Below are positions 3,844 through 25,101 of a stretch of DNA of 30,000 nt, piece by piece. Made by a program: the position numbers and the translations under genes. The notes beneath the pieces are model-generated. The model did no database searches, had not been told where the DNA came from, and was given only the letters and a program-made list of their open reading frames with translations. This DNA is from Erwinia sp. SLM-02. Lineage in GTDB: Bacteria; Pseudomonadota; Gammaproteobacteria; Enterobacterales; Enterobacteriaceae. The stretch's first letter is position 1. The number at the start of each line of letters is the position of its first letter. The stretch spans positions 20,485-50,484 of the forward strand of contig NZ_JAQISN010000005.1 of the NCBI RefSeq assembly GCF_037450285.1. Reading direction: 5' to 3'.

Positions 3844-3882
3844 ACACTCATATTAAGCAAGCATTCTCGGCTTTAAACCACT

Positions 3883-3911: not shown

Positions 3912-3920
3912 CATGGCCGG

Positions 3921-4913: not shown

Positions 4914-4951
4914 ATAAATGTCAATAAAAAATATAAAATAAATGTCAATAA
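4914..4951 (+). promoter_or_regulatory. Exact 14-bp direct repeat ATAAATGTCAATAA x2 (candidate AraC-family operator/activator site)
   Basis: Copies lie at 4914-4927 and 4938-4951 (24-bp phasing), ending 43 bp upstream of the MFS ATG. AraC-family proteins commonly bind tandem direct repeats that overlap the -35 region. Confidence 0.4.
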
Positions 4952-4993
4952 TTTAAATCCGATAATGTGAACCAGATCAATAAAGGATAGAAG

Positions 4994-6271: not shown

Positions 6272-6273
6272 TC

Positions 6274-7269: not shown

Positions 7270-7270
7270 A

Positions 7271-8788
7271 ATGCAGCGTGATTTAGACCATCCCGACATT
7301 GTGATTATTGGCTCCGGTATTGGTGGAGCCACCATGGCTTTCGGGCTTGCTAACAGCGATCTGAAGATCCTCATTCTGGAAAGCGGCGAACAGATGCCGG
7401 ACTCTCCGGACAATGACGATCAGCAGAAGATATTTTCTCAGCAGCACTTTAAGCCCGACGAAGTCTGGTTCGATAAAGATAATAAAGCTTTTCGCCCCGG
7501 GAATTACTACTACGTTGGTGGCAACTCCAAGTTCTACGGCGCGGTACTGGCACGCTACCGGCAGGAGGACTTTGAGGAGATGATCCATGAAGGAGGCGTT
7601 TCCCCCGCCTGGCCATTCGGTTATGCCGAACTGGAACCCTGGTACTGCGCGGCGGAAAAACTCTATCGGGTCAGGGGCAACAGCCAGGCCGACCCGACCG
7701 AACCACCCCGTTCCCACCCCTATGCTTTTGCAGCCATTGAGGATGAAGCCGATATCGCCATCGTCCGGCGCAGGCTGCAAAAACAGGGTCTTAGTCCCTA
7801 TTCTCTGCCGCTGGCGGTAGATATTGCACAGTGGAGCCAGTCGCGCAAAGTCCCGTGGGATGCACATCCCCACTATTTTAACGGCAAGTTTGATGCGGAA
7901 ACCGCCGCCCTGAGCCTGACCGCCAGCCACAGCAATATTCAACTTTTGACCGGCAGCAAGGTCATCAGACTGAAAACCGCTGCGGACGGCGGACGCATCG
8001 AAGAGGTGGTTTATCAACGCAATAATCAGACCTGTAGCGTGCGCCCTAAACTGGTTATTCTCGCCGCCGGAGCCGTACATTCGGCTGCGCTGCTGCTTAA
8101 ATCGAAAAACACCCGCTACCCCAACGGGCTGGCGAATCGCTCTGGCATGGTTGGTCGCAACTTTATGAACCACAACTGCACCGCCGTGGTGGGCTTCAGC
8201 CATCGCTACTGCAACCGCTCTGTGTATCAGAAAACCTTCGGCCTGAATGATTTCTATCTTTCCGACGGCGCAGGTGGCTACCCGCTAGGCAACATTCAGC
8301 TGTTGGGTCGCGTGTCCGGTCAGATCCTCAAGTCGTCCCTTCCCGCAGCGCCGGGTTTCGCCTTGAACTACTTCAGCAGGCACAGCATTGATTTTTACGC
8401 CATGAGTGAAGATTTGCCCTCCCCTGAAAACCGTATCCAGCTGGACGGCGATAAAATAACTCTGCACTGGGAGCGCAATAACTGGGCGGCGCATACCCGA
8501 CTGGTGAAAAAACTCAGCAACGCACTTAAGAAATGTGGGTTCTATTTTGTGATGAGTAAACCCTTCGATAAACGAACGCCGTCACACCAGTGCGGCACGG
8601 TCAGAATGGGTATCGATCCCGAGCGCGATCCGCTTAACAGTTACTGTCAGGCCTGGGAGCATGAGAACCTGTACGTGGTGGACGCCAGCTTTATGCCCAG
8701 TTCGGCAGCGGTTAACCCTTCACTGACTATTGCCGCGCAGGCGCTGCGAGTGGCGGACCACATAATGCAGCATCGTCTTGCCAAATAA
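7271..8788 (+). CDS. GMC-family FAD-dependent oxidoreductase
   Basis: Contains the FAD fingerprint DIVIIGSGIGGATMAFGLA. The C-terminal GMC active-site region is HQCGTVRMG ... NLYVVDASFMPSSAAVNPSLTIAAQALR. ATG at 7271 (GAGGA SD, 1 nt after the Gfo stop) is preferred over GTG at 7256. Confidence 0.85.
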   Translation: MQRDLDHPDIVIIGSGIGGATMAFGLANSDLKILILESGEQMPDSPDNDDQQKIFSQQHFKPDEVWFDKDNKAFRPGNYYYVGGNSKFYGAVLARYRQEDFEEMIHEGGVSPAWPFGYAELEPWYCAAEKLYRVRGNSQADPTEPPRSHPYAFAAIEDEADIAIVRRRLQKQGLSPYSLPLAVDIAQWSQSRKVPWDAHPHYFNGKFDAETAALSLTASHSNIQLLTGSKVIRLKTAADGGRIEEVVYQRNNQTCSVRPKLVILAAGAVHSAALLLKSKNTRYPNGLANRSGMVGRNFMNHNCTAVVGFSHRYCNRSVYQKTFGLNDFYLSDGAGGYPLGNIQLLGRVSGQILKSSLPAAPGFALNYFSRHSIDFYAMSEDLPSPENRIQLDGDKITLHWERNNWAAHTRLVKKLSNALKKCGFYFVMSKPFDKRTPSHQCGTVRMGIDPERDPLNSYCQAWEHENLYVVDASFMPSSAAVNPSLTIAAQALRVADHIMQHRLAK

Positions 8789-8810
8789 GGACTCCAATCC
8801 GCTACAAAGC

Positions 8811-8840
8811 AAAACGCCATGTCAGACATGGCGTTTTTTT
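8811..8840. terminator. Bidirectional rho-independent terminator shared by the two convergent operons
   Basis: AAAACGCCATG-TCAGA-CATGGCGTTTT, with the T-run extending to 8840 on the plus strand. On the minus strand a T-rich stretch (TTTTGCTTTG) follows the stem. The element lies between the GMC stop (8788) and the flavoprotein stop (8842). Confidence 0.9.
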
Positions 8841-8841
8841 A

Positions 8842-10917: not shown

Positions 10918-10943
10918 ATTTTTTCCACAAAAATTTTATTTAA

Positions 10944-12173
10944 TTAACGCGTACACTTCACGGCATAGAACAGAATGACGCCGAAGCTGAACACCGGAAT
11001 AATAAACGCGGTTGCCATTGAGGAGTAATCGGCAATCATCCCCATCAGATAAGGCGAAATAGCCCCGCCGACTAAGGTCATCACCAGATAAGAACCCGCG
11101 CGCTTTGACTGCGCGCCCAGGTTTTTCACCCCCATGGCAAAAATGCACGGGTACATAATCGACAGGAAGAAGAAAATCACCACCAGTCCGATAACGGAGA
11201 TTTTTTCCACGCCCATCACCGCCAGCGAGCACAGCAGAATATTAATAATGCTGTAGGTAATTAACATGCTGCGTGGCGCGAAATACTTCATCACCCAGGT
11301 GCTGATAAAACGGCCAATCATAAAGGTCAGCATCGCGCAGGAAAGCAGATAAGAGGCGTCCTGCACGCTGGTACCCTTCCAGTGGTCAATCGCGTAGTTG
11401 ATAAAGAATGAGGCGATCCCCACATGCGCAGCCATATAAAAGAACTGGGCGGCCAGCGCGCCGGTAAAGCTCGGTTTTCTCCAGATGCTCTGCTGAACGG
11501 CACCGACGCAGCTGTCATCGCGTGCTTCCTGCACTTCCGGCAGGCGGGTGACGATAAACACCACCATCAGCAGCAGTACTACGGCAGCCAGCACCACGTA
11601 GGTGGTCATCACCGGATCAAAGGCGTGCCCGGCTATGCGAATGTCCGGCGCGAAGAACAGCGTACCGCCGATAATTGGCCCCATAAACACGCCAAGGCCG
11701 TTAAAGGACTGGGCGAAATTCAGGCGACGTTCGGCATTATTAGCATCACCCAGCACCGACGCATACAGATTGGCCGAAGTTTCCAGGCAGCCTAAACCGC
11801 AGGCCAGAATAAACAGGGCAAACAGGAAAAAGGCAAAAGTACCGACCGAGGTGGCCGGCACAAACAGTAATGCTCCGGCTGCGAAAAGTAATAATCCGCA
11901 GATCACGCCAAGCTTGTAGCCATAACGCTGCATCACTGCGCCGACCGGGATCGCCACAAGAAAATAGGCACCGTAATAGGCCATTTGCAAATAGCCGGAC
12001 TGCGCCTTGCTGACGTTTAAGGAATCCTGAAAATGTTTATTTAAAACATCCAGCAGGCCGTGGGAAAGCCCCCACAGGAAAAACAGCGAGGTGATCATGC
12101 CAAAGGCCAGCTTTACCGATACAGTCTTATTATTAAATGCAGGAACAGAAGCGATGTTGTTATCAATACTCAT
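10944..12173 (-). CDS. MFS transporter, FHS family, L-fucose-permease (FucP)-like
   Basis: 409 aa and roughly 12 TM segments. Motifs LFFLWGLSHGLLDVLNKHFQ and LGCLETSANLYASVLG closely resemble the FucP-type signatures (LFFLW...LNDIL, GLGCLETAANP). GAAGAGG SD is present. Confidence 0.85.
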   Translation of the reverse strand: MSIDNNIASVPAFNNKTVSVKLAFGMITSLFFLWGLSHGLLDVLNKHFQDSLNVSKAQSGYLQMAYYGAYFLVAIPVGAVMQRYGYKLGVICGLLLFAAGALLFVPATSVGTFAFFLFALFILACGLGCLETSANLYASVLGDANNAERRLNFAQSFNGLGVFMGPIIGGTLFFAPDIRIAGHAFDPVMTTYVVLAAVVLLLMVVFIVTRLPEVQEARDDSCVGAVQQSIWRKPSFTGALAAQFFYMAAHVGIASFFINYAIDHWKGTSVQDASYLLSCAMLTFMIGRFISTWVMKYFAPRSMLITYSIINILLCSLAVMGVEKISVIGLVVIFFFLSIMYPCIFAMGVKNLGAQSKRAGSYLVMTLVGGAISPYLMGMIADYSSMATAFIIPVFSFGVILFYAVKCTR

Positions 12174-12202
12174 ACAGACCTCTTCGCAGATGTTTTTAGT
12201 GT

Positions 12203-13807
12203 TTAATGACGGCCCAACCGACCGAGAATGGCATCCGCTGCCTTTTCGGCAATCATGATGGTCGGTGCGTTGGTATTACTGCTCGGGACGCGTGGTATCA
12301 CGGATGAATCCGCAATGCGCAGGCCTTCAAGACCAAATACCTTCAGATGCTCATCCACTACCGCATCAGGATCGCTCTCTACACCCAGGCGGCAGGTGCC
12401 TACCGGGTGATGATCGGTTTTTGCGTTCTGGCAGGCATACTCGAAGAGCTCGTCATCGGTACGGATCTGCGGCGAAGGCAGACGAATTTCCTTCACGTAA
12501 GGCTTGAACGCATCCTGCGACAGGATTTCACGCACCAGCTTCAGGCCGCGCAGTGACATTTCGCGGTCGTAAGGGTCCGCCCAGTAGTTGGGATCGATCA
12601 GCGGCGCATCGGCCGGATTGCCGCTTGCCAGCCGCAGCGTGCCGCGCGAGCGCGGGCGCAGGAAGGCGGAGTTCAGCGTCACGCCGGAGTTTTTCATCTG
12701 CTCAACGCCCGCTTCGATGCCGGACCCCAGCCCCAGGTGGAACTGCACGTCCGGTGACCGCGCGTTGCTGTCCAGGTACCAGAAGCCGCCCGTTTCAAAC
12801 AGGCTGGAGGCTACCGGTCCCTTCTTCAGCAGCAGATACTGCAAACCGGCCCAGGCCGCATGATGAATTTTCAGGCAGGGGTCGTAGGTATGGTCGCCGG
12901 TACACTCGGCAATAGCGAACAGGTCGAGGTGATCCTGCAGATTGCTGCCCACGCCCGCCAGATCATGTTTCACAGTAATACCCTGCTCTTCCAGATGCCG
13001 GGCCGGGCCGATCCCGGAAAGCATCAGCAGCTTAGGCGAGCCAAAGGCACCGGAGGTGACGATCACCTCCCGCGTAGCGCGTACCTGCTGTGTGCCGCCG
13101 CTGCCGGTGGCAATTTCCACACCGGTCGCCCGCTTGCCTTCCAGCAAAATGCGCAGGGTGAAAGTATTCAGCTTCACGGTCAGATTTGGCCGCGACTGCG
13201 CCGGACGCAAATATGCCACCGACGTTGAGGAGCGTTTAGCATTAAGCTGGGTAAGCTGGTAATAACCTAACCCGCCCTGATGCTCACCGTTAAAGTCCGG
13301 GTTATAGGGAATATTTAATTCCTGTCCGGCCTGGAAAAAAGCTTCGCAAATAGGCAACGGGCTGATGGGATTTGATACGCCAAGCGGGCCGCGATAATCA
13401 TGATATTCATTAACGAAGCGCTGGTTTTTTTCGGATTTTTTAAAATAGGGCAGCACATCTTTATAAGCCCAGTTTTTAACGCCGCAGGCCTGCTCCCATT
13501 CGTCATAATCATATTTCGACCCACGGGTATAAACCTGCGCGTTAACCGATGAACCGCCGCCAATTACTTTCGCCTGGGTAAATCGCAGTACGCGATTATT
13601 CAGATGCTTCTGCGGTACGGTGTGCCAACCCCAGCTACTGCGGCCCTTAGTCATTTTGGCAAAGCCGGCGGGCATGCTGAACAGCGGATGGGTATCACCC
13701 CCACCCGCCTCCAGCAGCAACACCTTAATTGCCGGGTCCTCGCTGAGTCGGTTCGCCAAAACGCAACCGGCAGATCCCCCGCCGATAATAATATAATCGT
13801 ATTCCAC
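12203..13807 (-). CDS. GMC-family FAD oxidoreductase, choline-dehydrogenase (BetA)-like
   Basis: Contains YDYIIIGGGSAGCVLANRLSED, GGSSVNAQVY, and the active-site region HHPVGTCRLG ... LRIADSSVIPRVPSSNTNAPTIMIAEKAAD. The start is GTG at 13807, with a GAGGT SD 5 nt upstream. Confidence 0.9.
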   Translation of the reverse strand: MEYDYIIIGGGSAGCVLANRLSEDPAIKVLLLEAGGGDTHPLFSMPAGFAKMTKGRSSWGWHTVPQKHLNNRVLRFTQAKVIGGGSSVNAQVYTRGSKYDYDEWEQACGVKNWAYKDVLPYFKKSEKNQRFVNEYHDYRGPLGVSNPISPLPICEAFFQAGQELNIPYNPDFNGEHQGGLGYYQLTQLNAKRSSTSVAYLRPAQSRPNLTVKLNTFTLRILLEGKRATGVEIATGSGGTQQVRATREVIVTSGAFGSPKLLMLSGIGPARHLEEQGITVKHDLAGVGSNLQDHLDLFAIAECTGDHTYDPCLKIHHAAWAGLQYLLLKKGPVASSLFETGGFWYLDSNARSPDVQFHLGLGSGIEAGVEQMKNSGVTLNSAFLRPRSRGTLRLASGNPADAPLIDPNYWADPYDREMSLRGLKLVREILSQDAFKPYVKEIRLPSPQIRTDDELFEYACQNAKTDHHPVGTCRLGVESDPDAVVDEHLKVFGLEGLRIADSSVIPRVPSSNTNAPTIMIAEKAADAILGRLGRH

Positions 13808-13879
13808 GTTGACCTCACGTCATGAGACGGCAGCCATCTTATTCAGATGGCCGCGTTATTATTTAACTTGCGAATTGAA

Positions 13880-15400
13880 TTAACTGGCGTTATTTATCCA
13901 CCAGTTGGTTCTGGCACCGGTGTGTAATTGCACGGTTTTCTGCTCGGTATAATCTTCTACCGCGCCCTTACCTAATTCACGCCCCAGGCCGGATTGTTTA
14001 AATCCGCCAAACGGTAATTCCGGCGAACCGTCCAGGAAAGTATTTACCCAGATCGTACCGGCATTAATTTTTCGCGCGGCTTCCAGGCAAATATCGATAT
14101 CCTTACTCCACACTGCGGCGGAAAGTCCGTACAGGGAGTTATTAGCAATGCTGATTGCCTCTTCATAATCGGCAAAGGTCAGAATGGCCAGTACCGGACC
14201 AAAGACCTCTTCCTGCGCAATCTGCATCTCCGCCTTCACGCCACCGACCACGGTAGGGGCCATAAACAGTCCCTGACCGGTCGTAACCCGGTCGCCGCCG
14301 AGCAGGATTTCAGCACCCTGTTCGCGGGCAGAACGGATAGCGTCCTCAATGACCGCCATCTGGTTATCATTAATAATTGAACCGACTTTGACCTCGGGAT
14401 GCAGCGGGTCGCCGACCTTCACCTGACTGGCTTTTTCTACCACCGCGCGGGTAAATTTCTCGGCAATGTCCTGATGCACCAGTACGCGGCTGCCGCTGTT
14501 ACAGCATTCGCCAGCGTTGAAATAGACGCCAAACACCACGGCATCGACCGCCGCGTCAAAATCGCAGTCCGGGAAGATGATTTGCGGATTTTTACCGCCC
14601 AGTTCCAGCGAGACTTTCTTCAGCTTGCGCCCGGCTTCCGCCGCGATATGTCTGCCTACCCGGGTGGAGCCGGTAAACGACACCATATCGACATCATCGT
14701 GATCCACCAGCGGACTGCCCACATTGGTACCCAGGCCGGTAACGATGTTGACCACGCCAGCAGGCACGCCCGCGTCGGTGAGGATTTCGCCCAGCATCAG
14801 CGTGGTTCCGCTGGTGAACTCGCTCGGTTTAATCACCACGGTACAGCCCGCCGCCAGCGCAAACGGCAGCTTCTGGCTGAGGATCCAGATCGGGAAATTC
14901 CACGGCGTGATCATCGATACCACGCCCACCGGCTGACGCAGCACCAGGCCGAGCATCTGGTCGCCCAGCGTGTTGTAGCTTTCACCGTGCAGCGTGCGGG
15001 CCAGCGAGGCGGCATAGCGCCATAAATCCACGCAGCCGGACACTTCACCGCGCGCCTGCGCCAGCGGTTTACCGGTTTCCAGGCATTCGATAATCGCCAT
15101 CTCTTCACTGCGCTGCGCAATGCCGTCGGCAATCTTCAGCAGCAGCTCCGCACGCTCCTTCGCGGTGAACGACGTCCATGTTCCTGCATCAAACGCACGG
15201 CGCGCCGCAGAAATGGCCAGCAGAGCGTCTTCCGCGCTGCCGTCAGCATAATTTCCGGCGACGATGCCGTGCGCAGGACCAACGCGGTCAACACGTTTGC
15301 CGCTAACGGAGTCACGGAATTCCCCGCCGATCAGCATGCTGCCGTGATAAGGCCGATAGTCAGTCAGGATTGACGGGTCTGCGGTTAAAAATGTGGTCAT
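13880..15400 (-). CDS. NAD(P)-dependent aldehyde dehydrogenase (hydrolytic type)
   Basis: Contains ITPWNFP, FTGSTRVGRHI, LELGGKNP (Glu), FNAGECCNSGSR (Cys) and EEVFGPV. I place the start at ATG 15400 (MTTFLTAD, GGAGAA SD). The 552-aa ORF-track version would overlap the upstream hydratase gene by 137 nt. Confidence 0.9.
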   Translation of the reverse strand: MTTFLTADPSILTDYRPYHGSMLIGGEFRDSVSGKRVDRVGPAHGIVAGNYADGSAEDALLAISAARRAFDAGTWTSFTAKERAELLLKIADGIAQRSEEMAIIECLETGKPLAQARGEVSGCVDLWRYAASLARTLHGESYNTLGDQMLGLVLRQPVGVVSMITPWNFPIWILSQKLPFALAAGCTVVIKPSEFTSGTTLMLGEILTDAGVPAGVVNIVTGLGTNVGSPLVDHDDVDMVSFTGSTRVGRHIAAEAGRKLKKVSLELGGKNPQIIFPDCDFDAAVDAVVFGVYFNAGECCNSGSRVLVHQDIAEKFTRAVVEKASQVKVGDPLHPEVKVGSIINDNQMAVIEDAIRSAREQGAEILLGGDRVTTGQGLFMAPTVVGGVKAEMQIAQEEVFGPVLAILTFADYEEAISIANNSLYGLSAAVWSKDIDICLEAARKINAGTIWVNTFLDGSPELPFGGFKQSGLGRELGKGAVEDYTEQKTVQLHTGARTNWWINNAS

Positions 15401-15401
15401 C

Positions 15402-16187
15402 TTATTCTCCCAGGTATTCTGCTTTACGCCGCTCAGAAAAACTCGCCAGTCCTTCTTTCGCATCGCGTGTGGTTGCTGCCAGCGCACCGGCAATGGATTC
15501 CAGCGCCATCGCCGTATCCGTTCCTGTGCCTGCATCAATAATCTGTCGGGTCAGCTGTACGGAAACCGGTGCCTGCTCGCTGATTTTTTCCGCCAGCGCG
15601 ATAGCCGTTTCCAGCGCCTTGCCCGGTTCGCTGATTTCCTGAACCAGGCCCGTCTCATACGCACGGTCGGCGTTGATGCGGATGCCGGTCAGCGCCATAT
15701 ATTTCACCTGCCCTGGTCCGATCAGCTGCACCAGACGCTGGGTACCCGACCATCCCGGGCAGGTGGCTATTCCCGCCTCCGGTAGGGCGAACGTGGCCGC
15801 CGGGTCGGTAACGCGAATATCGCTGGTAGCCAGCAGCTCCAGTCCACCGCCGAAGGCGTGACCGTTGATCGCCGCAATCACCGGCACTCTGAGCGTGGCC
15901 CAGCGGTCAAAAACCCGATGGCCTTTACGCACCCAGCTGCGCCACATATCCAGCGCCGCCAGCGAAGACCAAACCTTGATATCCGCACCCACGCAAAAGG
16001 CACGGTCGCCAACTGCGGTCAGTACCACGGCGCGCAGCACCGGGTGGTCATCAATTTCATCCGCAATGCGCGCCAGCTCGCTGAGCATAAAGGGCGTCAG
16101 CGCGTTGAGCTTTTCAGGGCGATTCAGCGTAACAATGGCAATCGTGCCGCGCGTCTCCAGCGTGACGCTGCCCATATTTTCAGCCAT
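15402..16187 (-). CDS. Enoyl-CoA hydratase/isomerase (crotonase) family protein
   Basis: 261 aa. Contains LNRPEKLNAL, FCVGADIK, INGHAFGGGLELLATSDIR and the second catalytic-region Glu in FALPEAGIA. The stop lies 1 nt before the ALDH ATG. Confidence 0.9.
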   Translation of the reverse strand: MAENMGSVTLETRGTIAIVTLNRPEKLNALTPFMLSELARIADEIDDHPVLRAVVLTAVGDRAFCVGADIKVWSSLAALDMWRSWVRKGHRVFDRWATLRVPVIAAINGHAFGGGLELLATSDIRVTDPAATFALPEAGIATCPGWSGTQRLVQLIGPGQVKYMALTGIRINADRAYETGLVQEISEPGKALETAIALAEKISEQAPVSVQLTRQIIDAGTGTDTAMALESIAGALAATTRDAKEGLASFSERRKAEYLGE

Positions 16188-17769
16188 GGGTCACCTCCGG
16201 TAGTTCCAGTCCCATTACCGCGTCGTAAAACATACGAGGATCCATAATCTTCAGGTTCTGAGCTACCCGCAGCGGGAAGTCGGCCTGCTCGAGCACGTCC
16301 CGGGTCAAATCCATGCCTGGCGCGATTTCCGTGACCATCAGCCCGTCTTTAGTCAGTTGCATCACGCAGCGCTCGGTGACATAGATAACGTCCTGTCCGC
16401 GTTCCAGCGCCATCCGGCCGCTGAACGTCACATGATCGACATCGTTAACCAGCTTGCGCATTTTGCCTTCCCGATCGATGACCAGTTCCCCACCCTCAAT
16501 CCGCTGGCTGGCGCCGGCTTTAAAGAATCCGGAAAACACCAGTTTTTTCGCATGGGTGGTAATGTCGACAAAGCCGCCGCAGCCGGCGGTCAGGTAAGGT
16601 TTGCCAGGGAGTTTCGACACGTTCACGTTGCCGAAGCGGTCAATCTGCAGGAACGACAGCATCGCCATATCAAAACCGCCGCCCTGGAAATAGGTGAACT
16701 GGGTGGATGCCGGGACGATCGCGTCAGCGTTGGCCGCACAGCCAAAGGCAAAGCCCAGCAGCGGCATACCGCCCACCGCCCCCTGCTCAATCACCCAGGT
16801 GACTTCTCCGTTCATGCCTTCTTCCAGCAGAATCCGCGGAACGTTGGCGGAAATACCGAAGCCGAGGTTAACGGTCATGCCTTTTTTCAGCTGCATGGCT
16901 GCGCGGCGGGCAATCAGTTTTTCCGTACCCCACTCAGGTACCTCAAAACTGCTTTCCGGGTGGAATATTTCGCCGCTGATCGCCGGATCGTAGGCAATCA
17001 TGGTGGTTTGCATCTGGTCCGGGGCCACAACGACATGGTCCACCAGGTTGCAGGGCACATGGACGTGATGCGGTTTCAGCGTGCCGGCTTTGGTCAGGCG
17101 CTTGACCTGGGCAATCACCGTGCCGCCATTGTTTCTCACTGCCAGCGCCTGTTCCACCACGCCAAGCACACCGCCTTCATGTTCAAAGGACAGGTTGCCA
17201 CGCTCGTCAGCGGTGGTGGCACGAATAATTGCCACATCCGGCACCAGCGGATGGAAGTGCAGCCAGGTTTGGCCGGAAAAATCAACTTTGCTGACCAGCG
17301 GTTCCGCGGCGGCAAGTTCGTTCATCGCGCAGCCCTGACGATCCGGGTCAACGAAGGTATCCAGACCCACTTTGGTCAGAACGCCGGGACGTTTTGCCGC
17401 CGCGTCCTTATGCAGATCGAACAGCACGCCGCTGGGCACGTTGTAGCCGGCGATTTCGTTGTCGATAATCATCCGCCAGATTTCCGGCATCGGTAAGGAT
17501 GACGGGCCGCTGGGCAGCGAACCTGCGATCACTTTTTTCAACAGTCCGGCCTGGGCAAGATGCTCAATCCCCGGAATACCGTACATATCCCCCGCGGCAA
17601 TCGGGTGGATCATGGTGAGATTGACCGGTTTCCCTTCATTTCTGTAACGCTTGCCCAGCGCAGCCAGCACCGCATCCGGGCAGTTCAGGCCGCTGGCCGA
17701 ACTGACGGTGACCGAAGCGTTATCGCCGACCAGCGCAGCGGCTTCGTCAGCAGTGAGTAGTTTTTTCAT
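16180..17769 (-). CDS. Family I acyl-CoA:acetate/3-ketoacid CoA-transferase, fused alpha/beta, YdiF/propionate-CoA-transferase-like
   Basis: About 530 aa, collinear with the E. coli YdiF pattern as I recall it (FVDP..., IIRATTADERGN, SFLQIDRFGNVNVSK, VTFSGRMALERGQDVIYVTERCV, EIAPGMDL). ATG at 17769 (MKKLL) is preferred, with GTG at 17778 possible. The 3' end overlaps the hydratase start by 8 nt. Confidence 0.88.
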   Translation of the reverse strand: MKKLLTADEAAALVGDNASVTVSSASGLNCPDAVLAALGKRYRNEGKPVNLTMIHPIAAGDMYGIPGIEHLAQAGLLKKVIAGSLPSGPSSLPMPEIWRMIIDNEIAGYNVPSGVLFDLHKDAAAKRPGVLTKVGLDTFVDPDRQGCAMNELAAAEPLVSKVDFSGQTWLHFHPLVPDVAIIRATTADERGNLSFEHEGGVLGVVEQALAVRNNGGTVIAQVKRLTKAGTLKPHHVHVPCNLVDHVVVAPDQMQTTMIAYDPAISGEIFHPESSFEVPEWGTEKLIARRAAMQLKKGMTVNLGFGISANVPRILLEEGMNGEVTWVIEQGAVGGMPLLGFAFGCAANADAIVPASTQFTYFQGGGFDMAMLSFLQIDRFGNVNVSKLPGKPYLTAGCGGFVDITTHAKKLVFSGFFKAGASQRIEGGELVIDREGKMRKLVNDVDHVTFSGRMALERGQDVIYVTERCVMQLTKDGLMVTEIAPGMDLTRDVLEQADFPLRVAQNLKIMDPRMFYDAVMGLELPEVTHG

Positions 17770-18009
17770 CGTGTTCACTTATTGTTTGATTAAAATCGAT
17801 AAAACATGAATTTTCCTGTCCAATCAGAAGCATCCCCTACTCATCACGTTCATCAATAAGCGCCAAACCTTGTTGGTAAAAAACAAAATTAATTATGTAA
17901 AACAGAAACATAACAACCCACCTATTGTTCCATACGGTTTATTATTGAGATCAAGCCAGCGTTTCTGGCGCGCTTTGCCCTTTCATTTAAAAACCATAAA
18001 AATTCAAAA

Positions 18010-18043
18010 TTGGATCGTTCCAATTTCTTTTGGAACGTTCCAA
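18010..18043. promoter_or_regulatory. Two LacI/GalR-type palindromic operators
   Basis: TTGGATCGTTCCAA lies at 18010-18023 (outer 5+5 bp symmetric). TTGGAACGTTCCAA lies at 18030-18043 and is a perfect 14-bp palindrome. Both have a central CG flanked by AA/TT as in the family consensus TGnAAnCGnTTnCA, are 20 bp apart, and sit in the divergent LacI/operon control region. Confidence 0.7.
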
Positions 18044-18232
18044 AACACTATAGATGGCATTAGAAAGAGTCAATCCGTCATAACAGATAAGATCTAAAAT
18101 ATGATCTTCGTCGCAAACTTCTTGTAAGTATCTTCACTTGCAATGCATTAATTGGTGATACCGCAGGGGGAAAGGTGGATTTTGACCAGTACCGCGATTA
18201 CTCTTAGGGAAATTTTTTCCAGAGGTTACAAA

Positions 18233-19261
18233 GTGAGACTTCCTACGGGTGACGGTAAAGTGACAATCATGGATATTGCCCGTGCTGCTGGCGTGTCCAA
18301 ATCTACTGTCTCACTTGTGCTTAACAACAGCGAACTGGTGAAGCCGGAGACAGCCGCAAAGGTGAAGCTGGCGGCGGAAAGCATCGGTTATGTCTATAAC
18401 CGCAGTGCGGCCAGCCTGCGGCAGGGAACCAGCAACGTTGTGGCGATGGTGGTTAATGACCTCACCAACTCTTTCTTTGTTGAGCTGCTGATCGGTGCCG
18501 AGCGCCGCCTGCTGGAATCGGGCTTTATCACCCTGCTCTCCCATACCGGGGAAGATATTCCGCTTCAGGAACAGGTACTTAATTCGATGCGTGAGCAAAA
18601 AGCCGCCGGGCTGATACTGTGCCCTGCACTGAGCACGCCGCCCGGCCTGATCCGAACGCTGAAAAGCTGGAAGCTGCCCTTCGTCACCGTGATGCGCCCG
18701 TTAGAGGGTGAAGACTCTGATTTTATCGGCTGTGATAACTACGAAGGCATTAAGCTGGCCACCCAGCACCTGATCGATCTCGGCCATAAAAAAATTGCCT
18801 TCATTGGCCGTAACCGCACCAATTCCGTCAGCGTTGTCCGCCAGGACGGCTACGAGCACTGCCTGCTGAACAACGGATTTACTATTAATTCGTCGTGGAT
18901 TGTAGAAAGTAGAATCAGCATGGCGGGTGGTAAAGAAGCGATGAAACAGCTGCTCCAGCTTAACGAACGCCCAACGGCAGTGGTGTGTTATAACGATCTG
19001 ATCGCCACCGGGGTACTAAGCGAAATCGGTGAACAGGGTTTGACCGCCGGCAAGGATATTGCCGTGGTCGGCAGCGATGGCGTAGCTAATACCGCGTTCA
19101 CCAACCCGCCGCTGACCACCGTTGCCCTGCAGAGCCATAAAGTTGGCGAACTGGCCAGTCAGATTCTGCTGAACCGGTTAAAGGATCCGACCGCGCCCTT
19201 TACCCACACACTGCTGAAGCCCGAACTGATTATCCGCAAGTCCTGCGGTTCTAAAGCCTGA
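18233..19261 (+). CDS. LacI/GalR-family transcriptional regulator
   Basis: The HTH is TIMDIARAAGVSKSTVSLVLNN, followed by a periplasmic-binding-protein-like sugar-sensor fold (VVNDLTNSFF, AFIG, VVCYNDLIATGVL). The start is uncertain. I prefer GTG at 18233 (AGAGG SD 7 nt upstream), with alternatives GTG 18260 and ATG 18269. The ORF-track start at 18152 looks too long. Confidence 0.88.
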   Translation: MRLPTGDGKVTIMDIARAAGVSKSTVSLVLNNSELVKPETAAKVKLAAESIGYVYNRSAASLRQGTSNVVAMVVNDLTNSFFVELLIGAERRLLESGFITLLSHTGEDIPLQEQVLNSMREQKAAGLILCPALSTPPGLIRTLKSWKLPFVTVMRPLEGEDSDFIGCDNYEGIKLATQHLIDLGHKKIAFIGRNRTNSVSVVRQDGYEHCLLNNGFTINSSWIVESRISMAGGKEAMKQLLQLNERPTAVVCYNDLIATGVLSEIGEQGLTAGKDIAVVGSDGVANTAFTNPPLTTVALQSHKVGELASQILLNRLKDPTAPFTHTLLKPELIIRKSCGSKA

Positions 19262-19284
19262 AACCCTCTGCTTCCCGGCGATCG

Positions 19285-19328
19285 GGCTTCAGGCTTCAGG
19301 CTTCAGGCTTCAGGCTTCAGGCTTCAGG
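19285..19328. repeat. Perfect heptanucleotide tandem repeat (GGCTTCA) x6 plus a partial unit
   Basis: Six exact units span 19285-19326, followed by GG. The repeat starts 24 nt after the LacI stop codon and directly abuts the terminator stem. Confidence 0.95.
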
Positions 19329-19354
19329 TACTGTTTATCCCCGGGCAAACAGTA
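19329..19354 (+). terminator. Probable terminator of the LacI gene
   Basis: TACTGTTT-N10-AAACAGTA (8-bp stem), followed by the T-rich TCTGCTTATTTTGTG. Confidence 0.5.
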
Positions 19355-19384
19355 TCTGCTTATTTTGTGCGCTTCCTGCCGCCA

Positions 19385-19585
19385 TTATTCTCCATGCCGC
19401 TGCCCGTTTTGTTCCTCGCCGTTACAGCCGTTTTCATCGGCTTCATCCGCCTGCCACTGTAGCAGCGCGGCCAGATAGCCGTAGCGTGCCTCCACGCTGA
19501 AACCCTGCCAGATGCGGCCGCTGTCGCCTTCGGACAGTCTGAAGTAGTCGCGGAAATAGTGCGCGCTGTCTCTCAACATACTCAT
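19385..19585 (-). CDS. Hypothetical small acidic protein (66 aa)
   Basis: Strong SD (GGGGGAG, 5-nt spacer) precedes ATG at 19585. No family is recognised. The C-terminal third is Asp/Glu/Asn/Gln-rich. Confidence 0.5.
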   Translation of the reverse strand: MSMLRDSAHYFRDYFRLSEGDSGRIWQGFSVEARYGYLAALLQWQADEADENGCNGEEQNGQRHGE

Positions 19586-19772
19586 TTTAACTCCCCCACG
19601 TTTCGCTATCGATCTGAGCGATACGGATCTTCCCGCCGTCCGGGCATTAACGATCCGTGATCCGGCTCACTTCCGGCTTGTTGCAATTTTGTTAGCATCT
19701 CCGACATAATTACGAACGAAGATAATAAAACCTTCATTCGAAGCCTAACACACCTGAAGCGGAGCTGTCACG

Positions 19773-21032
19773 ATGAGCGATTTCACCTCGACCACCCTAC
19801 CTGAAGACCACAAGGCCCTTATCCGGCTGATGAAAAAGCAGCTTCGCCAGCAGATTGGTGACGTTGAAGGGCTTTTTGCCCAGGTTAAGCACAAGATTAC
19901 GACTGAAATCGCCCGGGCGAAGGCAGAAGAGGCCGCGAACGGCACCGCCTGGCCGGTGATTAACTGGAGTGACATCAGCGAAAAACGCATCACGGCGGAG
20001 CAGATTGCGGCGATCAAACGGCGCGGCTGCGTGGTGGTGAAGCAAACTTTCCCGCGCGATAAAGCCCTGGCCTGGGACACCTCAATGCTCGACTACCTCG
20101 ACCGCAACGATTTCGACGCGCAGTATCGTGGGCCGGGGGATACGTTCTTCGGCAGCCTTGAGGCATCCAGACCGGAGATTTACCCGATTTACTGGTCCAC
20201 CGCACAGATGGAAGCGCGGCAAAGTGAGGCAATGGCCGAAACGCAGTCGTTCCTCAACCGCCTGTGGAAGTTTGAAACCGAAGGGGTGAGCTGGTTTAAC
20301 CCGGACGTCAGCATTATCTATCCGGACCGCATCCGTCGCCGCCTGCCGGGAACCACCTCAAAAGGCCTGGGTGCGCACACCGACTCCGGCGCGCTGGAAC
20401 GCTGGCTGCTGCCGGCCTACCAGCAGGTATTCAGCAAAATATTCAACAATCAGTTCGCCGAGTACGATCCGTGGGATGCGGCGCACCGCACCGAGGTGCA
20501 TGAATATGATGTTGATAACACCACCAAGTGCTCCGCCTTCCGCACCTTCCAGGGCTGGACCGCGCTGTCGGATATGCAGCAGGGACAGGGGCTGCTGCAC
20601 GTGGTGCCGGTGCCGGAAGCGATGGCCTATGTGCTGCTGCGGCCGCTGCTGAACGACGTCCCGGAAGATGAACTGTGCGGCGTGGCGCCGGGCAAGGTTC
20701 TGCCGGTATCACCACAGTGGCACCCTGATTTGATTGAGGGACTCAGCTCGATCCCGTCGCTGCAGGCGGGCGATTCGGTCTGGTGGCACTGCGATGTGAT
20801 CCACTCGGTGGCCCCGGTAACCGAACAGCAGGGCTGGGGCAACGTGATGTATATCCCCGCCGCACCGCTCTGTGAGAAGAATCTGGCCTACGCACACAAA
20901 GTGGCGCAGGCGCTGGATCAAGGAACGTCGCCGGGCGATTTCCCGCGGGAAGACTACGAACGCGACTGGCAGCAGCGCTTTACTACTGCGGATTTGAATG
21001 ACATCGGTAAGCGTAGCCTCGGGTTGGAATAA
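19773..21032 (+). CDS. DUF1479 / YbiU-like protein (2-oxoglutarate/Fe(II)-oxygenase-like fold)
   Basis: 419 aa, the length typical of enterobacterial YbiU-type DUF1479 proteins. A candidate facial triad is H-x-D in GLGAHTDSG plus a distal His in WWHCDVIHSV. GGAG SD is present. The family call is from memory of family properties, not from an alignment. Confidence 0.6.
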   Translation: MSDFTSTTLPEDHKALIRLMKKQLRQQIGDVEGLFAQVKHKITTEIARAKAEEAANGTAWPVINWSDISEKRITAEQIAAIKRRGCVVVKQTFPRDKALAWDTSMLDYLDRNDFDAQYRGPGDTFFGSLEASRPEIYPIYWSTAQMEARQSEAMAETQSFLNRLWKFETEGVSWFNPDVSIIYPDRIRRRLPGTTSKGLGAHTDSGALERWLLPAYQQVFSKIFNNQFAEYDPWDAAHRTEVHEYDVDNTTKCSAFRTFQGWTALSDMQQGQGLLHVVPVPEAMAYVLLRPLLNDVPEDELCGVAPGKVLPVSPQWHPDLIEGLSSIPSLQAGDSVWWHCDVIHSVAPVTEQQGWGNVMYIPAAPLCEKNLAYAHKVAQALDQGTSPGDFPREDYERDWQQRFTTADLNDIGKRSLGLE

Positions 21033-21156: not shown

Positions 21157-21909
21157 ATGAACAGCAGACACGAACAGATCATCCAGCTGGTGAATGAAAG
21201 AGGCAGCGTCAGCGTCAGCGAGCTGGCGCAGCTGACCGGCGTTTCCGAAGTCACTATCCGCCAGGATCTCAACGCGCTGGAACGCGATAATTTCCTGAAG
21301 CGCGTTCATGGCTCCGCCGTGGCGCCCGACAGCGATGACGTCAATTCCCGCATGCAGACCCGCTACAAAATCAAGCAGGGGCTGGCCGAATTTGCCGCCT
21401 CACAGATCGGCGATGGCGAAGCGATCTTTATCGAAGGCGGCAGCACCAATGCCCTGCTGGCCCGCGCGCTCGCCGCGCGCAGCGACCTGACGATTATCAC
21501 CGTCAGCCACTTTATCGCCCATCTGCTGCGCGACTCGCAGTGCGAAGTGGTGATCCTCGGCGGCCAGTATCAGAAAAGCAGCGAGTCCGTGGTCGGACCG
21601 TTAACCCGCTACTGCATCCAGCAGCTCAACTTCCACAAGGCCTTTATCGGCGTGGACGGCTGGCATTCCGATACCGGCTTTACCGGCCGCAACATGATGC
21701 GCTGCGACGTGGTGAACGCGGTAATGGCCAAAGGTACCTGGACCATTGCGCTGACCGACTCGTCCAAATTCGGCAGCGTACACCCTTATCCGATTTCCAT
21801 TGAGCACCGCTTCAGCCAGATCATCACCGATGACGGCCTGGCACCGGACATCCGTAAGGCGCTGATTAAGCAGCAGTATCAGCTGGATATTGTTGCCCAG
21901 CGCCGCTAG
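21157..21909 (+). CDS. DeoR-family transcriptional regulator
   Basis: The N-terminal HTH is [39 protein letters not shown]. The C-terminus is a DeoR-C sugar-phosphate-sensor-like domain ([24 protein letters not shown]). Confidence 0.9.
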
Positions 21910-21950
21910 CGCAGAGCCCGGCCGTTCGACATAAATAAGGAATCAGCAGT

Positions 21951-23729
21951 ATGGCCGCAACCCCTGCGGATAGTGAAAAATGGTGTCTGGGTAGCGTGAT
22001 CTGGTACGGCGGTTTTAATACCAAAACGAACAGAGAAAACCATTTCGGCTTTCTGGCCTCCGAGAGCAAAGCAGAGCTTTTTTTTCATAAAAGCGACATC
22101 ATCGGCAGCCAACTGCCCGAAGAAGAAACGCTGGTTCTGTTTCACGAAGGCGTCAGCAAAAACGGCAAACCCGCCGCCTTTGCCGTACATCTTCTGGAGG
22201 CCGCCGACTCGGCGGATCGGCTGGCCGACTACCTCAGCGCTTCCCGCCAGGGTGAAATTGATTTCAACCGCTGGCCGTACCGCGACAGGGTGATTCAGTG
22301 CTTCACTCAGGCGTGGGGAAAAGACGTGGTCAGCCGGCTGGCTGCCAGCGGCATTCCGCCCTGCACGCTGTTGGCGTTGTTCCACCAGCGGATGCACTAT
22401 GCCGGGCTGTTTGATGCCATCGCCGCCAGCCGCGATTTTAACGGCCTGATTGCAGAACGGATCTGCCCGACGCTGATGCCGCGCTCGTTTATCGACGCGC
22501 ATATCACGCAGTTTGCCGGGTGGATAAAATCAGAGGCAGTACAGAGTTCCGTTCACGCGGTGCCCCAGGTCGCACTGATTAAAACGCTGCTGACCCATAT
22601 CTCTTTGAGCGCCGTTCTCTACCTCGCCTTCCTGAACTGCCTGCCGGCTGACACCCTGATTGACCACCGCGGCAGTGAAATAGCGCAGTTTGTTAAGCGC
22701 AGCTTCAGCGATGACAGGCTGGCGGTAGAACCCTTTGTGCGCGACGCCTATCAGCACGCGTTCGCATCAAGAGCCGATTATTTCGCTCACCCGGTAATTA
22801 AGGCTTATGCGCTGCCCTATCTGATAAAACTCAAGATGTTCAGAAAGGATTTCAGCTTCGTTGATGACATTGAATCCAGCCCGCTGATGTCCGCCGATCC
22901 TGAGTATTTTATCCTCGGGAAGCTCCTGCCGCTGATTGGGCGCAACGACGATATGGTCATTCAAAGCGTGATTCTGCATGAGATCTGGCAGGGATTATTG
23001 TCCGGCAGGATCACCGTTGATCATCCCGCTATCTTCAGGCTTTTCCCGCAGTGTGAAAATTTGCGCAGCCGTTACTGGCATATCAAACTCTCCTGCGAGG
23101 CCTTCCACTGGCAGCCCAAAAATCAGGACGGCCCTAAGGCAAAAGTGTTTCTCTGCCGATCGAAAAAGTGCCTGGAACCTCAGGTATTGCCCGATCTCAG
23201 TAAGCCTTACGGGGATTTCTCCATTTATGACTGGCTTGCGCACTACGGCATGCAGTATATGGTCGCGGACGAGCCGTCAAAGCGCGATTTACCGATTAAA
23301 CTGGCGGCCTGGTTTAACCGTATCAGGGAGCTGTTTGCGCGCCTCTGCTGCCGCAGCTGCGGTCTGCTGATGGTCCCCAATATGAAATACTCCCGCGTTG
23401 AGGCCACGGTGTGGGACCCGGAAAGCAAAGGATTTGTCCGCAGACCCTTCCAGGCGGCCTATCGTCTGACGGTATTTAAGTGCGCCAGCCATGGCTGCGA
23501 GCAATTTGATATCAGCCACTACATCAACCACTGCATTGGCTATAAATGCAGCGAGATTATCGACGCCCGCGATCTGACCGAGAAATGCGACGAAGGCCGG
23601 TATATCTGTACCTCCTGTGGCTCCTGCTGCACGCATCACCAGGAAAAATATGGCAACGTCAATAACGGCGAAGCGGAAGATGTGAAGTACGAGCGCATCT
23701 ATAGCGGTTCACCGTACTACATCCCGTAA
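21951..23729 (+). CDS. Uncharacterised 592-aa protein: N-terminal cold-shock/OB-like domain, long helical middle region, Cys-rich (zinc-ribbon-like) C-terminus
   Basis: Long ORF with an AAGGA SD 9 nt upstream, starting 42 nt after the DeoR stop. Residues 11-82 follow the CspA-like pattern (GSVIWY, HFGFL, ELFFHKSDI, GKPAAFAVHLL). Residues 368-563 hold 16 Cys in paired spacings. No enzymatic motif is recognised. Confidence 0.8.
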   Translation: MAATPADSEKWCLGSVIWYGGFNTKTNRENHFGFLASESKAELFFHKSDIIGSQLPEEETLVLFHEGVSKNGKPAAFAVHLLEAADSADRLADYLSASRQGEIDFNRWPYRDRVIQCFTQAWGKDVVSRLAASGIPPCTLLALFHQRMHYAGLFDAIAASRDFNGLIAERICPTLMPRSFIDAHITQFAGWIKSEAVQSSVHAVPQVALIKTLLTHISLSAVLYLAFLNCLPADTLIDHRGSEIAQFVKRSFSDDRLAVEPFVRDAYQHAFASRADYFAHPVIKAYALPYLIKLKMFRKDFSFVDDIESSPLMSADPEYFILGKLLPLIGRNDDMVIQSVILHEIWQGLLSGRITVDHPAIFRLFPQCENLRSRYWHIKLSCEAFHWQPKNQDGPKAKVFLCRSKKCLEPQVLPDLSKPYGDFSIYDWLAHYGMQYMVADEPSKRDLPIKLAAWFNRIRELFARLCCRSCGLLMVPNMKYSRVEATVWDPESKGFVRRPFQAAYRLTVFKCASHGCEQFDISHYINHCIGYKCSEIIDARDLTEKCDEGRYICTSCGSCCTHHQEKYGNVNNGEAEDVKYERIYSGSPYYIP

Positions 23730-23730
23730 A

Positions 23731-23779
23731 GCGTAGGGATTGGCGGCATTTATATCGATACCGCTGTTAAGCCCTACGC
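23731..23779. terminator. Two-tier hairpin between convergent genes
   Basis: GCGTAGGG (23731-23738) pairs with CCCTACGC (23772-23779), with an inner GCGG/CCGC pair. It starts 2 nt after the 592-aa ORF stop and overlaps the last codons of the convergent LysR gene. Confidence 0.4.
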
Positions 23780-24667
23780 ATCCCCTTTCACCAGTTCCAC
23801 AAACCGTTCCACCAGCGGATTCTGGCGGGCAGAAGACCAGGCCACCGCCGTGGTGACCACTTCAATGCGCTCTTCCAGCGGCAGCGTCACCACGCTGGTG
23901 AGCGACAGATGTTTCAGCGAGGAAGGAACCAGCGCAATACCCTGCCCGCAGCCGACGAACGCGATCTGTAAGGCAACGGAGCGAACCTCATGGAGGATGC
24001 GCGGCGAAAAGCCCTCACTGCGGCAGGCGGTGATAATGCTGTCAAAATACCCGGGGTTGAGGTAGCGATAGAACATCACCCACTCTTCATTCATCAGCGA
24101 GCGCAGGCTGATTCGGTTCTGCCCGGCCAGCCGGTGATCGTGCGGTAGCGTCACCACCAGCTCCGCGCTGGATATCGGCAGCGATTCAATCCCTTCCCCC
24201 TGCTCGCCGGTCAGACGGGCGAATGCCAGGTCAATTTCACCGTTCTGCAGCGCCGGAATTGCCTCAGCGCTGTCGATCTCCTTAATGGAAATCACGATAT
24301 CCGGGTTCAGCGCCTTCATCCGGCGAATATAGCCGGGCAGCACGTCCAGCATTGCGGCGCTGATGGCGCCAATCGTCAGCACCCCGCTGTGCCCGGCAAC
24401 GGCCTCGTTGATCGCCACCTCAAGCCGCTCCACCTGCTCCGCAAATTTCTTCACCGCCGGAAGGATCGCCAGGCCGACCGGAGTCAGCTGCACGTTTCTT
24501 TTCGAGCGGTCGAACAGCTTAACTTTCAGCGACTGTTCCAGCACCTGAATTTGCTGGGTTAAAGGAGGCTGCGTCATACCCAGTTTCTTTGCCGCACGGC
24601 CGAAATGTTTCTCTTCCGCCACGGCGAGGAACAGCCACATATGGCGGATGATGCGAAAATTAATCAT
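23774..24667 (-). CDS. LysR-family transcriptional regulator
   Basis: The wHTH is WLFLAVAEEKHFGRAAKKLGMTQPPLTQQIQVLE, followed by a LysR substrate-binding domain. 297 aa. Confidence 0.9.
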   Translation of the reverse strand: MINFRIIRHMWLFLAVAEEKHFGRAAKKLGMTQPPLTQQIQVLEQSLKVKLFDRSKRNVQLTPVGLAILPAVKKFAEQVERLEVAINEAVAGHSGVLTIGAISAAMLDVLPGYIRRMKALNPDIVISIKEIDSAEAIPALQNGEIDLAFARLTGEQGEGIESLPISSAELVVTLPHDHRLAGQNRISLRSLMNEEWVMFYRYLNPGYFDSIITACRSEGFSPRILHEVRSVALQIAFVGCGQGIALVPSSLKHLSLTSVVTLPLEERIEVVTTAVAWSSARQNPLVERFVELVKGDA

Positions 24668-24910: not shown

Positions 24911-25101
24911 ACTGGCCGGGGGACCGCTCGGGCGGGTCCTCGCGCCGCTTTGCGGTGCCCTCACTTCGCTTGTCAGCCGGTCGGACCGCCACAGACGCGC
25001 GTCCTGCGCGGCTGTGACTTTCGGCCACGTCCGTGTGGCCGAATCCTGGCTTCCTCGCTACGTTCAGCGCTGCGGATTGCCCGTTCGGTCCCCCGGCCAG
25101 T
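24911..25101. repeat. G+C-rich nested inverted-repeat element A (191 bp): long basal stem enclosing three local hairpins
   Basis: The basal inverted repeat ACTGGCCGGGGGACCG (24911-24926) / CGGTCCCCCGGCCAGT (25086-25101) is perfect over 16 bp. After a 2-nt mismatch it continues for 5 bp (24929-33 / 25079-83). The inner hairpins are 24942-24958, 24990-25016 and 25020-25043. The 3' arm is followed by CTGCGTTTTACTTTTGCG. Confidence 0.8.

Follow-up and report, generated by a model that had tools for sequence, protein, structure and literature searches.

The locus examined here, a 30,000-nt stretch of the Erwinia sp. SLM-02 genome (NCBI RefSeq assembly GCF_037450285.1, contig NZ_JAQISN010000005.1, positions 20,485 to 50,484 of the forward strand; "the window" denotes this whole stretch), raises the question of what a 592-aa protein with a cold-shock domain (CSD) and a cysteine-rich C-terminus does in its host. 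CSDZ is the name used here for this protein and its family. A first-pass annotation, made from the window sequence alone, had described it as an orphan and had proposed a sensor, regulator, or stand-alone stress or defence effector. Among these options a defence role is favoured by genomic context, and the chaperone or regulator reading is disfavoured. On balance, members of the CSDZ family are probably anti-phage or anti-mobile-element immunity proteins, a candidate role derived from context and evolution; because it rests on these and not on function, the case is only moderately strong. The two lines of evidence that carry it, the embedding of relatives in restriction-modification (R-M) loci and the mosaic divergence of the Erwinia gene, could not be seen by a reader of the window sequence alone.

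Genomic context and evolution

CSDZ is not an orphan. The window protein gave 34 matches in a database clustered at 90%, and an exhaustive search gave 453 representatives at E<=1e-3 with 50% clustering. Homologues occur in Erwinia, Pantoea, Escherichia coli, Klebsiella, Citrobacter, Enterobacter, Buttiauxella, Franconibacter, Vibrio, Photobacterium, Aeromonas, and Endozoicomonas, and named family members are mainly gammaproteobacterial. The NCBI entry for the 'cold-shock protein' of Erwinia sp. SLM-02 (P0001) is 100% identical to the window protein, and the source names of all family representatives are generic ('cold shock domain-containing protein'). Searches with the C-terminal domain alone or with the divergent alignment A2 added almost nothing new. 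Only CSDs were found among BFVD viral structures, and no homologue was found in phage genomes (tblastn) or IMG/VR.

Gene neighbourhoods were tallied over 13 independent clades. CSDZ is linked to Type I R-M genes in 8 of the 13 and lies in R-M or mobile/defence contexts in 11; metagenomic loci agree with this tally. The commonest R-M-linked position is between hsdS and hsdR, an embedding found in five or more clades. The enterobacterial cassette (hsdM-hsdS-yecA-like-CSDZ-hsdR-M48/YgjP peptidase) is 90-99% identical across ten genera and includes copies on IncF plasmids; CSDZ was present on 129 plasmids of Klebsiella, and all but one of these (128) were typed as conjugative. The cassette often adjoins TgvAB-like (GmrSD-like) DUF262 pairs, Hhe, and PD-(D/E)xK or restriction genes within a tRNA-Leu island. 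Among 5,426 complete E. coli genomes, 543 have its R-M family and about 199 (~4% of the 5,426) carry CSDZ; E. coli cassettes without CSDZ are otherwise ~97% identical, with nothing between the yecA-like gene and hsdR. Comparable arrangements are hsdM-hsdS-CSDZ(865 aa)-hsdR-YgjP in Aeromonas and hsdM-hsdS-CSDZ-hsdR-YgjP in two Vibrionaceae clades. In a metagenomic clade CSDZ lies directly 3' of hsdS in a second, unrelated Type I R-M family, and in Endozoicomonas an hsdS fragment is followed by RhuM, CSDZ, and PDDEXK_4. Decayed R-M remnants within integrase islands surround the Pantoea and Vibrio cholerae copies. Three clades without adjacent R-M genes place CSDZ in the variable region of an SXT-type integrative and conjugative element (ICE) or in integrase islands, and such islands carry Mrr, a 1,653-aa NERD-helicase, or reverse transcriptases. 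Housekeeping surroundings were seen only for the Erwinia clade and one Aeromonas sobria relative. CSDZ is usually optional cargo of Type I R-M operons or of other defence or mobile islands, and this embedding in other bacteria makes an immunity protein likelier than a cold-shock protein.

The same slot is used by known systems. PrrC is described as lying nearly always within Type I R-M loci (Payne et al., bioRxiv 10.1101/2024.01.29.577857), and the hsdS-hsdR gap holds proven defence cargo in the form of TgvAB on V. cholerae VPI-2 (PMC11411939) and DarTG2 in enteropathogenic E. coli (PMC12255303). CSDZ relatives resemble PrrC and RloC in being optional genes of the hsdS-hsdR interval in Type I R-M operons, but have no sequence or domain similarity to them, lack an ABC-type NTPase or HEPN-like nuclease, and also occur away from R-M. 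TgvAB and DarTG2 share the position, and TgvAB-like DUF262 pairs flank the CSDZ cassette; both are, however, unrelated enzymatic systems (GmrSD NTPase/His-Me nuclease and ADP-ribosyltransferase/macrodomain, respectively) whose domains CSDZ lacks. A literature search for CSD proteins with Type I R-M or defence returned only CoCoNuT, a CSD-bearing McrBC architecture (PMC11090510), and unrelated papers. The partners of retron type V (reverse transcriptase and non-coding RNA) and of CoCoNuT (McrB GTPase and DUF2357 McrC) were absent from the window and from the cassettes of relatives, and no retron RNA was found with Rfam. Finding defence candidates through R-M embedding is an established category; the CSDZ family is uncatalogued, with no PADLOC model and no listing in the text or supplements of Payne et al., and has neither a characterised homologue beyond its CSD nor a recognisable effector.

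Several neighbours of CSDZ in other genomes were recorded in their own right. A YecA-like UPF0149 plus SEC-C protein (L001 1467-2150; L013 8295-8978) is encoded directly upstream of CSDZ in enterobacterial cassettes and is kept in about 280 E. coli genomes without CSDZ. It corresponds to the PADLOC phage-defence candidate PDC-S12 (E 1.5e-97), which is like CSDZ in being a candidate known from embedding only; it is nevertheless a distinct protein and is absent from the Aeromonas, Vibrionaceae, and Erwinia CSDZ loci. A separate 110-aa SEC-C protein follows YgjP in one Vibrionaceae cassette. An M48/YgjP/SprT-like metallopeptidase gene (L011 17842-18597; L018 7357-8148; L031 14122-14928) follows hsdR and overlaps its end in every intact cassette of the R-M family seen in enterobacteria, Aeromonas, and Vibrionaceae, whether CSDZ is present or not, and seems to belong permanently to that R-M system. 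In the Pantoea and Vibrio lentus islands CSDZ adjoins a 1,653-aa protein with NERD, kinase-like, and helicase regions (L008 12222-17183; L020 13543-18504) and its ~517-aa partner, which may be another uncharacterised defence pair. Reverse transcriptases of 801 aa (L033 16306-18711) and 426 aa (L036 1282-2562) lie at most 8 kb from CSDZ in two unrelated islands and may be DRT or retron-type defence neighbours.

Erwinia sp. JUb26 served as the comparison for measuring divergence of the Erwinia copy. Among the flanking proteins, Gig2-like, DeoR, and LysR are 96-100% identical (nonsynonymous divergence, dN, 0.002-0.023; synonymous divergence, dS, 0.12-0.41), whereas CSDZ is 72% identical at the amino acid level (dN 0.177, dS 0.72, dN/dS 0.25), a dN 8-90 times that of the neighbouring genes. 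The GC content of third codon positions is 0.68 in CSDZ versus 0.74-0.78 in the flanks. The highest dN within the gene, 0.30, was obtained for residues 85-259. Nucleotide identity to JUb26 is 83-100% up to position 21893, 62-81% from the intergenic spacer to ~23340, and 97-100% over the last 125 codons, continuing into the LysR gene. Segment identities are discordant among six Erwinia-clade alleles; the window protein is 99% identical to P0003 in residues 467-567 and 58-72% elsewhere, and is 86-90% identical to P0002 in residues 260-466 only. The discordant segments, together with the intragenic breakpoint listed in Table 1, indicate that CSDZ is a mosaic of recombining alleles. The tract 23350-24350, which holds the 3' end of CSDZ and most of the LysR gene, is 97-100% identical to JUb26 compared with 85-95% in the wider flanks, which suggests a recent recombination tract ending inside CSDZ.

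All six Erwinia-clade alleles are intact at 592 aa. The window copy is taken to be a functional gene because its dN/dS is 0.25 and every family-invariant residue is present, and it is under net purifying selection while still diversifying by allele shuffling. Such rapid mosaic evolution is typical of conflict genes and argues against a housekeeping chaperone and against a pseudogene. The Erwinia locus documents an immune-like, allele-shuffling gene fixed at a core metabolic position.

Protein architecture

The domain layout was examined with a confident AlphaFold model built from 22 homologues (predicted local distance difference test, pLDDT, 82.5; predicted template modelling score, pTM, 0.73). 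It comprises a five-stranded barrel at residues 11-81, an all-helical region at 85-365, and a mixed alpha/beta Cys-rich region at 366-567. The main features of the gene claimed in the first-pass annotation, namely the 592-aa open reading frame (ORF) with its ATG start and Shine-Dalgarno sequence, the cold-shock-like barrel, the long helical middle, and the 16-Cys C-terminus, were all recovered; their coordinates are collected in Table 1 with those of the divergent tract.

Table 1. Features of the CSDZ gene and its divergent tract (window positions; x, any residue)
Feature	Position	Strand	Evidence or remarks
CSDZ complete gene	21951..23729	+	ATG start, 592 aa, ORF listing
Shine-Dalgarno AAGGA	21937..21941	+	9-nt spacer to CSDZ ATG, direct sequence reading
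Cold-shock domain, residues 11-82	21981..22196	+	Foldseek, family profile, invariant residues
Beta1-beta2 loop insertion, GGxNxKTxREN, residues 20-30	22008..22040	+	7-residue gap opposite CspB, HMMER alignment
Hypervariable helical segment, residues 85-259	22203..22727	+	Repeated 2-4 times in longer family members
Conserved helical segment, residues 260-365	22728..23045	+	Motifs VRDAY, HPV, LIKxKxFxKD, PExxxL
First Cys-rich sub-module, residues 366-446	23046..23288	+	C368, C382, C402, C407; invariant columns
Deep-conserved zinc core (putative), residues 447-567	23289..23651	+	Kept in 134/135 members of >= 500 aa
Upstream boundary of divergent tract	21894..21950	.	Identity falls to 47%, 44 gap columns (44-nt indel versus JUb26)
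Intragenic recombination breakpoint, C467-x2-C470 knuckle	23340..23350	.	Identity jump and discordant segment identities

The N-terminal residues, which read as the first-pass annotation had quoted them, model well as an oligonucleotide/oligosaccharide-binding (OB) fold with strands at 11-19, 32-37, 42-46, 61-68, and 74-81. In a Foldseek comparison with the PDB the barrel superposed on Bc-Csp/CspB (TM 0.76-0.82, probability 1.00), and the full model gave CSD/OB matches only, with nothing else significant. The family profile matched the CSDs of CspB, CspA, and Y-box proteins in the PDB at E 4e-7 to 1e-3 (4e-7 to 2e-4 for CspB and CspA). Pfam CSD (PF00313) scored 17.9 bits on the window protein (E 0.0028), below the gathering cutoff of 27, owing to the conserved 7-residue insertion in the beta1-beta2 loop; the cutoff is passed by some relatives (P0132, 29.5 bits), and at E<=1 the model recognises 33 of 48 divergent members. 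Within the insertion G20 and G21 are invariant, and N23, T26, and N30 are at least 90% conserved. On the binding face W18, G33, F34, and H46 are invariant and F32 and F44 are at least 90% conserved, and W18, F32-G33-F34, F44, and H46 align with the W-F, GFGF, and VFVH motifs of CspB. The CSD is genuine, with an intact aromatic single-strand-binding surface. CspA, CspB, and CspD (PF00313) have this OB barrel and its RNP1/RNP2-like aromatic face in common with the N-terminal 70 residues. Those proteins, however, are stand-alone chaperones of ~70 aa, whereas in CSDZ, which has the loop insertion, the CSD makes up 12% of 592 aa and is accompanied by two further domains, so the protein is not of the stand-alone type.

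Across the family the length of the middle region varies between about 280 and over 1,000 residues. Its first part (residues 85-259) is only 15-22% identical in distant members versus 52-67% for the zinc core, and in variants of 837-1084 aa a helical unit of ~90-100 residues is truly repeated 2-4 times, as judged from overlapping hidden Markov model (HMM) coordinates. The second part (residues 260-365) has R264, Y267, H280, K293, K295, D300, and E318 as invariants and was found together with the zinc module in 69 of 135 long members.

Exactly 16 of the 21 Cys lie within residues 366-567 (positions 368, 382, 402, 407, 466, 467, 470, 511, 516, 528, 533, 546, 553, 556, 559, and 560), a density with a chance probability of ~1e-9 at a background of 1.1%. 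The C-terminal Cys spacings are those listed in the first-pass annotation, and an H562-H563 pair directly follows the cluster. Across the 22 homologues, down to 36% identity, 15 of the 16 Cys (the exception is C466) and H563 are invariant, so the Cys pairs are conserved. Zinc-ribbon modules had been proposed for this region, and 15 invariant Cys in paired spacings do suggest a multi-zinc-ribbon module. The first Cys-rich sub-module, with the motifs LSCEAFHW, FLCRSK, and DWLAHYG, is present in 74 of 135 long members. The zinc core is characterised by N456-R457, C467-x2-C470, Y504, C511-x4-C516, Y524, H527-C528-x4-C533, I537-D-S-R540, C546, C553-x2-C556-x2-C559-C560, and H563. Residues surviving in 67 sequences less than 40% identical to the window protein, and also in the diverse alignment A4, are N456, R457, C467, C470, Y504, C511, Y524, H527, C528, C533, I537-D538-S539-R540, C553, and C556. 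In the most reduced relatives, which lack C516, C546, and C559/C560, a zinc site is probably completed by H527. Conservation of the N-R, Y, Y, and I-D-S-R residues suggests a specific pocket for binding or catalysis. In the nearer clade the acidic residues E383, D427, D446, E460, E484, and E548 are invariant. With HMMs built for individual segments, an N-terminal CSD of the family type was found in 109 of the 135 members that are 500 aa or longer. The architecture of the family can be described as a CSD followed first by a hypervariable helical region that can expand and then by a conserved, putatively zinc-binding core.

No catalytic signature had been recognised by eye, and none was detectable in family, profile, or structure searches; nor was any full-length match to a characterised family found. 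On the full protein Pfam, NCBIfam, PADLOC, and PDB phmmer searches gave nothing beyond the sub-threshold CSD. PADLOC-DB v2.0.0, including its phage-defence candidates, had no family for the window protein, P0010, P0011, or P0014, and the PADLOC matches of P0017 (to CSD_V, E 0.018, and LmuA, E 0.024) and P0038 (to AbiJ, E 0.21) are at noise level. A permissive Pfam search of 48 divergent full-length members gave CSD, generic zinc ribbons, and HARP only (the last in four distant members) and no enzymatic domain; 30 diverse C-terminal segments gave generic zinc ribbons only and no nuclease family even at E<=10. A separate model of the C-terminus was worse (pLDDT 65), and its structure search against the PDB was empty (best E 3.3). 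Candidate motifs were rejected individually: HEPN R-x4-H at 264-269 (H269 is variable), deaminase C-x-E / P-C-x-x-C (the sequence is C-E-A), GIY-YIG (a similar residue set in the wrong order), and PD-(D/E)xK (motif absent).

The sole non-CSD match in the PDB was 3flo_B, the C-terminal zinc domain of DNA polymerase alpha, which was obtained with a profile of 30 diverse sequences (E 0.018 over 81 profile positions). The two share the Cys spacing C-x2-C, C-x4-C, ~11-13 residues, C-x4-C, whereas the polymerase domain does not have the N-R, Y, Y, and I-D-S-R residues that are conserved in CSDZ. The match is a marginal lead to a docking or nucleic-acid-binding scaffold, being statistically weak and without Foldseek backing. 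An analogous design is known from Lin28, which combines a CSD and zinc modules in one RNA-binding protein, with two short CCHC knuckles directly after the CSD. Lin28 CSDs were among the weak PDB matches of the CSDZ profile, but homology is limited to the CSD: the ribbons of CSDZ are of a Cys4 type, lie at least 280 residues from the CSD, and are preceded by a large helical domain.

Proposed role and competing explanations

Under the immunity reading, the CSD and the zinc core, with its Tyr, Arg, Asn, and Asp residues, would together grip single-stranded RNA or DNA of an invader, and the variable helical array would set the specificity for a trigger or partner. Nucleic-acid binding would fit the conserved CSD fold and RNP-like aromatic residues, and the HARP domain that some distant members add. 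The output might be direct, non-catalytic blocking of the bound nucleic acid, which is slightly preferred, or might come from a recruited partner or a catalytic site of unrecognised type. In Erwinia the gene is a stand-alone version, fixed in a core chromosomal slot 3' of a DeoR regulator. A more specific proposal, which is possible but for now doubtful, is that CSDZ represents a new class of single-protein immune effector without a recognisable enzymatic domain, riding the R-M cargo slot and clamping single-stranded invaders and intermediates. The clamp would then be formed by a modified CSD and a novel zinc core, with the expandable, recombining helical array as specificity determinant, and the targets would be single-stranded DNA or RNA phages, conjugative entry of single-stranded DNA, and phage transcripts, a blind spot of Type I R-M. 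In a variant of this proposal the zinc core would have a novel fold with nuclease function or would provide a guard output like that of PrrC.

If CSDZ is an immunity protein, a common and clinically relevant defence gene has been missed by every current catalogue, and its mechanism could not be that of a standard nuclease, NTPase, or NADase. As annotations, 'cold-shock protein' and 'cold shock domain-containing protein' are misleading on the 2,600-plus sequences of the enterobacterial cluster and its relatives. The near-identical Type I R-M cassettes with and without CSDZ provide a clean natural experiment, and testable residues are defined (W18, F32, F34, and H46; C467 and C470; N456, D538, and R540).

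The exact PrrC position, which CSDZ occupies in at least five clades, also raises the prospect that it is an accessory or guard of Type I R-M, associated with HsdMSR in the manner of PrrC. It would fire when a phage anti-restriction factor disables HsdMSR or would modulate restriction (alleviation, single-stranded intermediates), and the Erwinia copy would depend on R-M encoded elsewhere or be the orphan of such a pair. CSDZ divergence ranks as that of the host HsdR (92/44/38% for CSDZ versus 98/76/57% for HsdR), suggesting a long association, and the marginal top match of the zinc core is the polymerase alpha domain, a protein-docking module. Against this, the copies of the Erwinia clade, A. 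sobria, the SXT-type ICE, V. lentus, and V. fluvialis have no R-M next to them; intact R-M cassettes also occur that lack CSDZ; CSDZ accompanies two different R-M families; and there is no similarity to PrrC or RloC. The window copy departs from the hsdS-hsdR embedding of PrrC, no R-M gene being present within the 30-kb window. A guard function is considered rather unlikely. Long-range conservation of the polar residues N456, R457, H527, D538, and R540 beside the zinc sites, and the many invariant acidic residues of the nearer clade, would suit a different arrangement, a self-contained sensor-effector in which the C-terminal module hides a nuclease of unrecognised fold and is brought to RNA or single-stranded DNA by the CSD. 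In the model H527 ends a beta-strand that is followed by a hairpin and a helix, with loose resemblance to a His-Me finger; this resemblance is weakened by the absence of C516 from the most reduced members, where H527 is the likeliest fourth zinc ligand. Neither HNH, GIY-YIG, PD-(D/E)xK, nor any other nuclease family was detected in the 30 diverse segments (E<=10) or the 48 full-length members, Foldseek of the module found nothing, and the only marginal PDB match is a non-catalytic zinc scaffold. A cryptic nuclease is a tentative suggestion of low probability, and it is not exclusive of the immunity reading.

Two further explanations were weighed. As a housekeeping RNA chaperone or post-transcriptional regulator, the role suggested by its 'cold-shock protein' annotation, it would act with DeoR in Erwinia metabolism or stress, which would fit the genuine CSD, its place 41 nt 3' of DeoR with no terminator between, and the synteny of this position in at least two Erwinia species. 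The DeoR link, however, is confined to Erwinia, the spacer is not conserved (a 44-nt indel), and 592 aa with four putative zinc sites contrast with the ~70-aa Csp chaperones; mosaic evolution 8-90 times faster than that of the neighbours and a patchy, horizontally mobile, plasmid- or ICE-borne distribution also speak against a housekeeping function, which is considered improbable. Still more improbable is that CSDZ no longer functions in Erwinia and is the decaying remnant of a gene formerly linked to R-M. Loss of the R-M context in Erwinia and the truncated or split copies seen elsewhere (Citrobacter, 336 aa; Aeromonas caviae, 297+579 aa; E. coli, 3' remnants) would agree with decay, but disruption among relatives is only occasional, and the six intact alleles, the dN/dS value, the retention of all 15 invariant Cys and other family-invariant residues, and a good Shine-Dalgarno sequence and start codon do not.

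The gene within the window

The DeoR-family ORF ends at 21909, and the gap to CSDZ is 41 nt rather than the 42 nt counted initially. No terminator-like site was found after DeoR and no sigma-70-like site in the gap, so co-transcription by read-through, which had been proposed, is plausible. A functional link of CSDZ to DeoR or DUF1479 is unlikely, because DeoR adjacency is specific to Erwinia and absent in every other clade examined. An antisense ORF of 198 aa (21906-22502, minus strand) overlaps the 5' third of CSDZ; it is without support and probably spurious.

CSDZ stands alone amid core metabolic genes. A search of the window for marks of insertion found neither flanking direct repeats nor a tRNA or mobile genes, and mobile elements and tRNAs are absent from positions 1-20000. 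That part is a metabolic and regulatory run that includes LysR, AraC, and LacI regulators, aldehyde dehydrogenases, MFS transporters, GMC and FAD oxidoreductases, a CoA-transferase, an enoyl-CoA hydratase, and a Gig2-like/DUF1479 protein. Downstream, a match to the TwoAYGGAY RNA motif (RF01731) was obtained with Rfam at 24970-25048 on the minus strand (46.9 bits versus a gathering cutoff of 43, E 8.6e-5), within the 870 nt that separate the LysR-type gene from the EamA transporter gene.

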